DNA from: a virus
Virus record (IMG/VR): IMGVR_UViG_3300037336_000025
Coordinates: 32,001 to 96,000 of that record
DNA length: 64,000 nucleotides
Reading direction: 5' to 3' (one strand)
A program made the position numbers and the translations under genes. Below the pieces are notes generated by a model that did no database searches, had not been told where the DNA came from, and saw nothing but the letters and a program-made list of their open reading frames with translations. Shown piece after piece: positions 46,187 through 50,229 of the stretch; the first letter of the stretch is position 1; every line of letters begins with the position of its first letter.

Positions 46187-46215
46187 TTGACATTTTGTCT
46201 TTAACCCTGTATAAT
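46187..46215 (+). promoter_or_regulatory. Perfect sigma70 consensus promoter TTGACA-17 bp-TATAAT
   Basis: TTGACA 46187-46192, TATAAT 46210-46215, AGGAG 46222-46226, ATG 46232. Confidence 0.85.
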
Positions 46216-49017: not shown

Positions 49018-49248
49018 ATGAGTACAGACAGTCATGATCGTATGATCCACGCTTTTCAGGAATACTTTAAGTATCAGGATCGCTTTGAACATCGAGGTTC
49101 AGATAGTGCTGGTGTTAGAGCACGATATTGGCTGAGTGAGATACGCAATGAGGCAAGTTTAAGGCGCACAGAAATACAGGCAAAAAGAGACGAACGTAAA
49201 GCAGCCAGGAAAGGCATGGTAGGAAGACCCCCTAAAATAAGTACTTGA
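49018..49248 (+). CDS. Small basic helical protein, Hc1 (histone H1-like)-type
   Basis: GSDSAGVRARYWLSEIRNEASLRRTEIQ resembles the Hc1-family G.KAA..R.R..L..L......R.E helix-turn-helix; Arg/Lys-rich tail. Confidence 0.45.
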   Translation: MSTDSHDRMIHAFQEYFKYQDRFEHRGSDSAGVRARYWLSEIRNEASLRRTEIQAKRDERKAARKGMVGRPPKIST

Positions 49249-49682
49249 TGACATGGTACTATAAGAAGAAAGAAATTACTGCAATCTCCGAAGATTATAT
49301 CGGTTTCGTATATCTTATTACCAATGTCATCTCTGGGCGCAAGTATATAGGCAAAAAACTAGCAAAGTTCGCAAAAACAACTTATAAAACAGTTACACTT
49401 AAGAACGGCACTAAGAAAAAAAAGAAAATTAGAGGCAAGATTGAAAGCGATTGGAAGGACTATTATGGTTCTAGCGATGCGCTTACAGCAGATATTAAGA
49501 CTTTAGGCAAAAATAACTTCACCAGAGAAATTCTATTTTACTGCAAAAACAAATCAGAATGCAGCTACATCGAGGCAAGAGAACAATTTAAACACAAAGT
49601 TCTAGAATCTACTGACTGGTACAACGGTCACATACAGGTTCGAGTTCACGGCTCACATATCCTCAAAAAACCCAAAATTTAA
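49245..49682 (+). CDS. Stand-alone GIY-YIG (Seg-like) nuclease domain
   Basis: GFVY-x10-YIG, YYGSS, NFTREIL, catalytic-type Glu (YIEARE) and YN; 145 aa with no C-terminal DNA-binding domain; Lys-rich insertion. Confidence 0.85.
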   Translation: MMTWYYKKKEITAISEDYIGFVYLITNVISGRKYIGKKLAKFAKTTYKTVTLKNGTKKKKKIRGKIESDWKDYYGSSDALTADIKTLGKNNFTREILFYCKNKSECSYIEAREQFKHKVLESTDWYNGHIQVRVHGSHILKKPKI

Positions 49683-49689
49683 GCAACAC

Positions 49690-50216
49690 CATTGCCGCTA
49701 GGCACAGACAATTTCAACAAATCCAGGCATTTAATCACCAAAAAAGCCCGCACCGGCGACTATTACTGTGCCCTAAATCCGTTCTGATGTGTGACGGTAA
49801 GGAATCTCTACTTGGTGAAGAGGTTATAAATCACTATCCTTAACAGGACGACGATCGGATACGCCTACGTACAACCGGTTTGATTTATAAAGAGAATATT
49901 AAAAAGGCTAAAAGATGGGAGAGAGACCCACGATTACTATGTGCGATAGCGTGTGCATAGTAATTCGCCGTTATTATTAAGACGGAATGAGTAGGTACCG
50001 GATAACCGCCTACGCAAGCAGCAATGCTTATAGTTCTAACGCTACTGTGTACTGTGCAACTCGCATAATGCTAGATTTTCTTAGCCCGCAAGGGCTAAGT
50101 GTGACTGAACAATCTGCATAATACTTAATTGCATTAATAACATATCTCTTAAAATACTGTTAAATAAAAGAAGTGCTTTGAGCGTGAGCGAAAAAGCAAA
50201 TGAGCTTTAGCTCATT
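49690..50216 (+). ncRNA. Candidate large structured non-coding RNA (about 530 nt), family unassigned
   Basis: The 596-nt gap (49683-50278) is the only long non-coding gap in the window and has no ORF in the track. It holds more than 10 helices, e.g. 49824-49833/49881-49890 (perfect 10 bp), 49933-49945/49952-49964 (13 bp with G.U), 49991-49995/50009-50013, 50016-50029 and 50080-50099 (GCAA tetraloops). GNRA loops and G.U pairs favour the + strand. Boundaries are approximate. Confidence 0.7.
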
Positions 50217-50223
50217 ATTGTAA

Positions 50224-50229
50224 TAAATA
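50224..50229 (+). promoter_or_regulatory. Putative late promoter TAAATA
   Basis: Immediately after the last hairpin of the candidate RNA and upstream of ORF 50279; a second copy lies at 50161-50166. Confidence 0.45.

Follow-up and report, generated by a model that had tools for sequence, protein, structure and literature searches.

A pseudoknotted, twin-box RNA behind the recombination genes of T4-like jumbo phages: a possible replication-origin primer

In a T4-like jumbo phage from freshwater (source record of 186 kb, 53% complete), the gene for a small GIY-YIG nuclease is followed by a long non-coding gap, and the question that this locus raises is whether the RNA encoded there works with the nuclease or has a task of its own. 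Within the window, i.e., the whole 64,000-nt stretch analyzed, the gene order is late sigma factor, gp47, gp46, a 76-aa ORF, the GIY-YIG ORF, the 596-nt gap and a 185-aa ORF, after which baseplate genes follow on the opposite strand. The gap had been singled out for its length in a preliminary description, and indeed, at 596-597 nt, it is the sole gap of more than 300 nt in the 186-kb record; it also folds better than shuffled sequences (z = −3.7). Among cultured phages, the closest gp46 proteins are those of PA5oct/Paride, Phosso and Atu_ph07 (47-49%), followed by those of the GAP32, 121Q and RaK2 group (34-36%).

The run from gp47 to the RNA is headed by a sigma-70 promoter pattern (Table 1), and a pattern scan revealed no terminator-like plus-strand site between this promoter and the RNA. 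RNA-library contigs in four metatranscriptome assemblies, all from relatives and available as contigs only, cover the RNA region. A single contig from a relative spans both the GIY-YIG ORF and the RNA, which hints at their co-transcription. Two contigs end at 50070 and 50110, ends that are too weak for placing that of the RNA, and metatranscriptome depth cannot rank expression. The last 100 nt of the gap comprise an AT-rich tract, two hairpins and the late promoter of the next gene, whose ATAAATA motif we take to resemble the T4 late promoter consensus. The product of that next gene starts with M-R/K-x-x-E-I-L-x-E, a motif that is common to the variable genes at this position and recalls T4 capsid-targeting sequences.

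Table 1. Features of the locus, numbered as in the window
Feature	Position	Strand	Basis
Perfect sigma-70 promoter (TTGACA-17-TATAAT), heading the gp47-gp46-76-aa ORF-GIY-YIG-RNA run	46187-46215	+	pattern match only
Stand-alone GIY-YIG nuclease (PF19835, phrog_447)	49245-49682	+	Pfam, PHROGs, model; slot swaps
Conserved structured RNA, full-length Polynucleobacter-1 type, ~390 nt, ends approximate	49736-50122	+	alignments, covariation
5′ domain with two pseudoknots: 49736-41/49812-17, and 49746-48/49755-57 across helix 49750-54/49767-71	49736-49817	+	covariation
Part matching Rfam RF01718 (Polynucleobacter-1)	49745-49890	+	70 bits (gathering 37), E 8e-13
3′ domain: hairpin loop 49947-52 paired with 50039-44; 49970-73/50003-06; helix 49984-88/50033-37	49933-50044	+	pair counts
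Box 1, GCATAAT, first direct repeat	50063-50069	+	alignments, covariation
GC-rich hairpin between the boxes	50080-50099	+	covariation
Box 2, GCATAAT; putative DNA invasion site	50116-50122	+	alignments, covariation
AT-rich tract, 80% A+T here	50123-50173		composition
Two hairpins of the DNA mini-hairpin type: GC-GNNA-GC at 50182-89, second at 50199-216	50174-50216	+	loop counts
T4-late-like promoter motif ATAAATA of the next gene	50223-50229	+	motif match
ORF after the RNA, 185 aa	50279-50836	+	ORF list

The nuclease gene and its slot behind gp46

The nuclease ORF encodes 145 aa from a TTG start, or 144 aa from the ATG at 49248. Motif, catalytic Glu and Asn, and fold are those of the GIY-YIG superfamily: the hallmarks pointed out in the preliminary description (GFVY-x10-YIG, Glu109 and Tyr125-Asn126) are invariant across 30 homologs, and the Pfam model SegE_GIY-YIG matches residues 4-130 (E = 5e-33). 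Domain searches returned nothing beyond SegE_GIY-YIG, in line with the earlier view that a C-terminal DNA-recognition module is absent, and the basic insertion, likewise described before, is predicted by the structure model to form a β-hairpin on an otherwise plain GIY-YIG fold. Fold comparison gave I-TevI (Z = 8.3; rmsd 2.9 over 77 residues), EndoII (Z = 4.4) and HIGLE (Z = 3.9); such searches support the GIY-YIG assignment but do not tell a resolvase from other roles. No solved structure related by sequence was found for the nuclease. With the stand-alone proteins T4 EndoII, Slx1 and HIGLE and the catalytic domain of I-TevI, it shares fold and catalytic residues; unlike them, it is a SegE-type protein with a basic β-hairpin, and its activity is a predicted one. 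T4 EndoII is a single-domain GIY-YIG enzyme that is able to work without RNA.

Members of the nuclease family are found in 468 cultured phage records, for the most part those of cyanophages. In PHROGs, as in many cyanophage records, phrog_447 carries the label 'NAD synthetase' and is actually a GIY-YIG nuclease. Homologs have a mean column identity of 78%, and the gene occupies a fixed, conserved slot. A free-standing homing endonuclease of the Seg or I-TevI kind was considered and rejected, given the lack of a second domain and a slot that is conserved rather than sporadic.

Loci were collected via the protein (80) and via the RNA pattern (118), and 114 of the RNA-anchored loci were informative for the upstream gene. 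The adjacency first seen in this one phage is the usual arrangement, with the GIY-YIG gene directly upstream of the RNA in 100 of the 114. An 800-nt gene lies between the two in seven loci, a PD-(D/E)xK protein (phrog_244, a RusA/Hjc-like resolvase) takes the same slot in three, and neither protein is found upstream in the remaining four. A search with phrog_244 likewise placed this resolvase ahead of RNA bodies of type A and of other kinds. Cultured relatives have, next after gp46, a gene for a RusA-like resolvase (Paride, Phosso) or for endonuclease VII (GAP32, 121Q, A4, XaC1), mostly with a gap of 0.8-1 kb behind it. Two genomes that are 98-99% complete (G001 and G002) possess the GIY-YIG gene and lack both phrog_244 and endonuclease VII, the latter searched with custom profiles and T4 gp49, and five cultured phages with endonuclease VII or phrog_244 are devoid of phrog_447. 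Among the genomes tested, which are a small sample, the three nucleases are mutually exclusive. Since unrelated resolvases fill the same slot behind gp46, the GIY-YIG protein is, on balance, probably a Holliday-junction or branched-DNA resolvase that acts beside the gp46/47 recombination genes and needs no RNA. Alternatively, by analogy to T4 EndoII, it may degrade host DNA. Uri nucleases of such phages have been proposed to be resolvases (PMC7824862).

Nuclease and RNA each also occur without the other. Behind the nuclease gene of the three cultured carriers that we inspected (P-SSM4, phiM7 and Melnitz), no RNA is present, and bacterial integrative elements possess the RNA but not such a nuclease. 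Whatever lies behind the GIY-YIG gene, its product keeps the insertion and every catalytic residue unchanged (30 homologs). In view of the swaps, the elements and the RNA-less cultured phages, an obligatory pairing of RNA and ORF does not hold: the nuclease is a replaceable neighbor of the RNA and not its partner.

An RNA with four pseudoknots and twin boxes

Conservation reaches ~50122 in the 80 protein-found and the 118 RNA-pattern loci, and the conserved part of the RNA measures only ~390 nt rather than the ~530 nt of the first estimate. Covariation, assessed by mutual information on 110 sequences and by pair counts on 45, supports the structured plus-strand RNA that had been proposed from the single sequence. 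In the 45-sequence set, 85.6% of the helix cells pair, as compared to ~40% when slid, and 55 of 78 pairs show two-sided changes. Among the helices drawn previously, covariation supports 49804-09/49819-24, the 10-bp helix 49824-33/49881-90 with its two inner hairpins, the hairpins 49916-30, 49933-64 and 49991-50013, and the GCAA hairpin between the boxes. Helix 49779-82/49795-98 exists one base off the proposed register, its 3′ strand being 49794-97. Others can form in this sequence but are not conserved: helix 49699-707/49766-75, whose 5′ strand is missing in many homologs and whose 3′ strand pairs with 49750-54; the closing helix 49893-99/50030-37, of which 50033-37 pairs with 49984-88; hairpin 49968-85, of which 49970-73 pairs with 50003-06; and helix 50068-77/50111-19, which is not part of the conserved fold. 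Hairpin 50016-29 is present, albeit as a lineage-specific insertion.

The RNA contains four pseudoknots, which the preliminary description had lacked together with the twin boxes and the Rfam match. Pseudoknot 49736-41/49812-17 is strong by mutual information (110 sequences) and 45% paired in the 45-sequence set, where the alignment is out of register. Helices of the 3′ domain are 95-100% paired, most pairs with two-sided changes (45 sequences), and the bulged core hairpin 49991-50013 is near-invariant. Its interpretation as a group IIC domain 5 was discarded, as strand order and bulge geometry differ. Hairpin 49917-49929 has a purine-rich T-loop-type loop in many homologs and is exchanged in some members for a longer conserved internal-loop module. 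The 5′ strand of hairpin 50080-99 can pair alternatively with 49978-81, a site at which 67 of 92 cases are identical against 31 expected. G-U pairs outnumber A-C mismatches by 8 to 0 in this inter-box hairpin, which argues that the plus strand acts single-stranded.

The match to RF01718 covers the full model (positions 1-141), and the family was also matched in 15 of 20 related loci. The 5′ third of the RNA thus belongs to a catalogued family, albeit one with no function assigned to it. Polynucleobacter-1 was found mostly downstream of one phage-like gene family (GOS11034/PSSM2_218-like), its 3′ half was not always detected and no function was given (Weinberg et al. 2010, PMC2864571, supplement). 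The gene family upstream of the RNA has cyanophage members; neither that gene nor a function is catalogued for Polynucleobacter-1. RF01718 holds 141 nt only, to which the phage RNA adds 3′ 230 nt, three pseudoknots, the twin boxes and the downstream hairpins. ROOL, GOLLD, RNase P and group I/II introns gave no Rfam match at gathering threshold or at E up to 10, and neither a ribozyme family, RNA II nor any Rfam family besides RF01718 was matched. ARAGORN detected no tmRNA in the gap, no split gene surrounds it as would be the case for an intron, and nucleotide BLAST with the RNA matched no cultured phage. HEARO/OMEGA systems (IscB-omegaRNA) likewise comprise a large structured RNA beside an endonuclease gene. 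However, the phage nuclease is GIY-YIG only and not RuvC/HNH (IscB, IsrB, TnpB), linkage in the phages is non-obligatory, there are neither transposon ends nor a HEARO Rfam match, and no freely variable guide is seen, the variable columns being paired stems and boxes that are bound to match each other.

The two boxes are identical in 92 of 94 cases against 16 expected, in a set selected for near-identity; without selection on identity, box column identity is 0.96-1.00. Sixteen box variants occur, and ~40 parsimony changes map onto the tree of the RNA body, both copies changing together. Switches between A and G number 19 at position 1 and 15 at position 5 and leave not one discordant tip, as compared to 0-27% non-Watson-Crick tips for RNA helix pairs of similar rate. 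Indels are mirrored in both boxes (L102 versus L132 within one subgroup; GAP32 versus 121Q). Four variants exist among phages with GIY-YIG proteins that are >90% identical, and two Erwinia aphidicola phages differ in their box, which does not track the host. Borders are sharp at 7 nt, with flanks that differ between the two boxes and stay fixed. The spacing is continuous from 47 to 61 nt, arguing against helical phasing as with protein-bound iterons. No third site complementary to the boxes was found in the RNA (covariation scan, 110 sequences), nor did G000 yield any in the form of extra copies. Boxes are imperfect in L315/L324, L320/L325 and L220-L229. Readings of the boxes as K-turn, CsrA site, DnaA box or −10 promoter were rejected, as none suits every variant, and all five hits of one pattern were chance matches. 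In L082, a natural deletion of box 1 and the inter-box hairpin leaves a single box, which may reflect an assembly error or a decaying copy.

The AT-rich tract and mini-hairpins travel with the RNA as a unit. In relatives, the tract often carries a bottom-strand GCGAAGC with a GAA triloop (52 of 94), and the second hairpin has a C-GTA-G loop in many (26 counted). Downstream loops are GNNA/GNA and not GNRA (GATA 14, GCAA 11, GAA 10, GAAA 9, GTTA 6). Mini-hairpins of this class have a far higher stability in DNA than in RNA and sit at the G4, St-1 and RSF1010 ssiA priming sites (PMC13037366). By analogy, the two hairpins downstream of the tract are candidate primase or single-strand initiation signals.

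Other RNA bodies, cultured phages and bacterial elements

At least four RNA bodies occupy the slot, unrelated ones having only the twin-box tail in common. Locus L016 encodes a GIY-YIG protein 92% identical to that of our phage, followed by a different RNA body with the same twin-box tail (model match, E = 7e-4); here the body was swapped and the box of its own lineage kept. The second body, ~330-400 nt long and with no Rfam match, is found at L016:1080-1480 and in L212-L217 and L220-L229, and an 86-aa ORF without Pfam match lies ahead of it in L016 and L215. Third and fourth bodies (L047, L051, L076, L236, L243; L242, L244) have a new 5′ third, or are new throughout with twin GGCAA-type boxes, and gave no Rfam match where scanned. 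The module was also seen with twin boxes and a diverged core in other phage gene contexts (L178, L170, L133), in L178 next to ClpS and IF-1-like genes. Each near-complete genome holds one RNA copy. An RNase H gene lies directly ahead of the slot RNA in L220-L229, and RNase HI adjoins the gap, directly after it, in Phosso; no RNase H1 was found in G000, G001 and G002.

A conserved RNA of the same layout is present in 72 cultured jumbo-phage records, including GAP32, 121Q and RaK2. This 121Q-type layout comprises a pseudoknot with compensatory changes, a core hairpin, twin boxes (CGTCAAG, CGTCAG or CTTCAAG, each twice), a hairpin, an AT tract and a sigma-70-like promoter of its own. The RNA is ~500 nt long (L255:8700-9440; L297:4900-5650; L299:2135-2870), unannotated as such and often mistaken for tiny ORFs. 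In RaK2-like phages it lies far from gp46, with no nuclease alongside. Profile and covariance models (R1, with no more than 9 pairs) failed to pick up the regions of 121Q, Paride and Phosso, which are taken here as same-layout analogs. The slot holds ~1 kb of non-coding DNA in Paride/PA5oct (L208:2550-3850, minus strand), with a consensus sigma-70 promoter and terminal hairpins, and in Phosso (L254:8410-9425). Twin boxes are not clear in Paride or Phosso, and none of the four ncRNAs reported for PA5oct corresponds to its slot region at 75.7-77.1 kb. These slots possibly harbor further RNA families.

Outside phages, the motif scored above cut-off in 17 of 151 Polynucleobacter genomes. The integrative elements that we inspected carry the whole RNA module together with genes for a tyrosine integrase, an Xer-like recombinase and a DUF6641 protein. 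Usually they also encode a clamp-loader subunit in truncated form (phrog_168, E = 4e-22), and the element genes scanned included no recognizable GIY-YIG, Rep or primase. Twelve of the 17 bacterial copies have a T4-late-like TAAATA ahead of the RNA, and small element ORFs have N termini like those of phage virion proteins. Element loci (L247-L250, L252, L253, L327-L331) stem from Polynucleobacter and one Oxalobacteraceae genome. They may be satellites that borrow a helper's replisome, or defense decoys. Like PICI and PLE phage satellites, they are small, integrase-bearing and patchy and have helper-type promoters and genes; they differ in the lack of a recognized Rep or primase, in the clamp-loader fragment and RNA module, and in that phage induction is a candidate trait.

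A possible origin primer and its rivals

Tentatively, and with reservations, we favor the RNA as a cis-acting primer precursor of a replication origin, similar to ColE1 RNA II or the R-loop origins of T4; this would make an origin-priming RNA, a side idea of the preliminary description, the preferred if far from assured reading. Host RNA polymerase would transcribe the RNA, whose folded body would present box 1; box 1 RNA would pair with the template DNA strand at box 2 and nucleate a persistent R-loop; the RNA 3′ end, after RNase H action or polymerase release, would prime leading-strand synthesis, and the displaced DNA would fold into the mini-hairpins and load primase or helicase. Small integrative elements would carry a copy of the module so that helper-phage enzymes replicate them. 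Pairing of box 1 RNA with the template strand of box 2 would explain why the boxes are identical and not complementary, and an invading RNA that must outcompete a perfect DNA duplex could account for the absence of wobble. The origin reading thus draws on the twin boxes, the AT tract, the mini-hairpins, the RNase H neighbors, the single copy and the Rep-less elements.

In ColE1, RNA II pairs through a run of rG with a run of dC in the template strand (PMC4412123; PMC5043065), and T4 oriF and oriG combine a promoter, an unwinding element and an R-loop (PMC4412123). The phage RNA resembles RNA II as a long folded transcript leading to an AT-rich site, with an RNA segment identical to downstream sequence, alternative pairings, putative displaced-strand hairpin signals and, in relatives, RNase H nearby. 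A segment that could pair with the template downstream is present, the boxes having stayed identical over ~40 changes. There is, however, no sequence match to ColE1, the setting is a phage or genomic island, the hybrid is a predicted one, a variable 7-nt box takes the place of the G run, and an antisense RNA I was not identified; the RNA may work like ColE1 yet is no member of its family. With oriF and oriG it shares a T4-like phage and a promoter plus downstream unwinding element among replication and recombination genes. To our knowledge, T4 origin transcripts are mRNA segments without an ornate conserved fold or twin boxes, and a model search of the T4 genome gave no match.

Several points speak against the origin reading. 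Seven bp are a short anchor, a primer would hardly seem to require a body of such complexity and conservation, and some loci have the imperfect boxes listed above. The lineage-matched box of L016 after its body swap fits a reader encoded elsewhere equally well, RNase H1 was not found in the three genomes named, and neither kind of model detected homology of the 121Q-type RNA. In two near-complete genomes, neither GC skew nor fourfold-site skew gives an origin signal, as both follow the gene strand. Finally, the clade has a primase and recombination-dependent replication (PMC7824862), and an RNA-primed origin may therefore be unneeded.

Of the rival explanations, a trans-acting structural RNA (scaffold, decoy or packaging RNA) fares best, although we consider it unlikely. 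Its boxes would be read by one fast-changing phage factor, e.g., a dimeric protein or a second RNA, and the elements would express the RNA during infection to borrow or jam phage machinery. The rich tertiary structure with its pseudoknots, the L016 box that follows the phage lineage, the T4-late-like promoters of the bacterial copies and the virion-targeting-like N termini of element ORFs all suit such a role. However, box changes this fast, with four variants among near-identical nucleases and no A/G difference tolerated, are hard to reconcile with recognition by a protein or by a shared RNA partner that would allow G-U; moreover, the box does not follow the host, and DNA-type hairpins travel with the RNA.

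Less probable still is a ribozyme or self-processing RNA with one active site that takes up the two boxes in turn, for cleavage, circularization or excision, e.g., in maturing the 3′ end of the gp47-gp46 transcript. A near-invariant bulged core hairpin with pseudoknot, the alternative pairing of 49978-81, which suggests a two-state switch, and the sharp box borders would fit. Against this, no internal guide covaries with the boxes, no ribozyme family was matched, unrelated RNA bodies share only the twin-box tail, and no box-to-box joint was seen in the contigs of the four metatranscriptome assemblies.

We regard it as very improbable that the boxes serve as DNA sites (iterons, nick or recombination sites) whose identity is maintained by gene conversion or a protein, while the upstream RNA has a regulatory task of its own. 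Wobble-free identity and mirrored indels would also fit copying between repeats, and a resolvase is usually next door, but the spacing lacks helical phasing, conversion would tend to erase the fixed differences between the box flanks, and the G-U bias of the inter-box hairpin points to a single-stranded plus strand. Hardly credible, lastly, is the earlier proposal of an RNA that acts as guide or scaffold for the GIY-YIG nuclease, a box then being the guide segment: the usual adjacency, the contig spanning both and a basic β-hairpin without a second domain are outweighed by a nuclease that is replaced by unrelated folds, separated or absent while the RNA persists, by the body swap in L016 beside a nearly unchanged nuclease, by cultured phages with the nuclease and no adjoining RNA, by the lack of a freely variable guide segment and by an insertion and catalytic residues that are the same whatever follows the gene.

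Returning to the origin primer, its broadest form would have jumbo phages start replication by a pseudoknotted RNA whose own 7-nt guide invades their own DNA a few helical turns downstream, with at least four interchangeable bodies feeding the tail and Rep-less elements parasitizing the system via a copy; we find this wider proposition rather doubtful. If true, it would be a self-targeting RNA origin, of a kind not described in phages. For the nuclease, the analysis suggests a real function for a core gene that is labelled 'NAD synthetase' in hundreds of cyanophage records. The literature searched gave no account of replication initiation in these jumbo phages, and Polynucleobacter-1 has counted as an orphan motif ever since 2010; both questions become testable with a full-length model, a sharp compensatory test of the two boxes and cultured phages of the same layout (121Q, E. 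coli). If the origin model holds, an RNA-directed origin would be added to phage biology, and the elements would point to satellites of jumbo phages.
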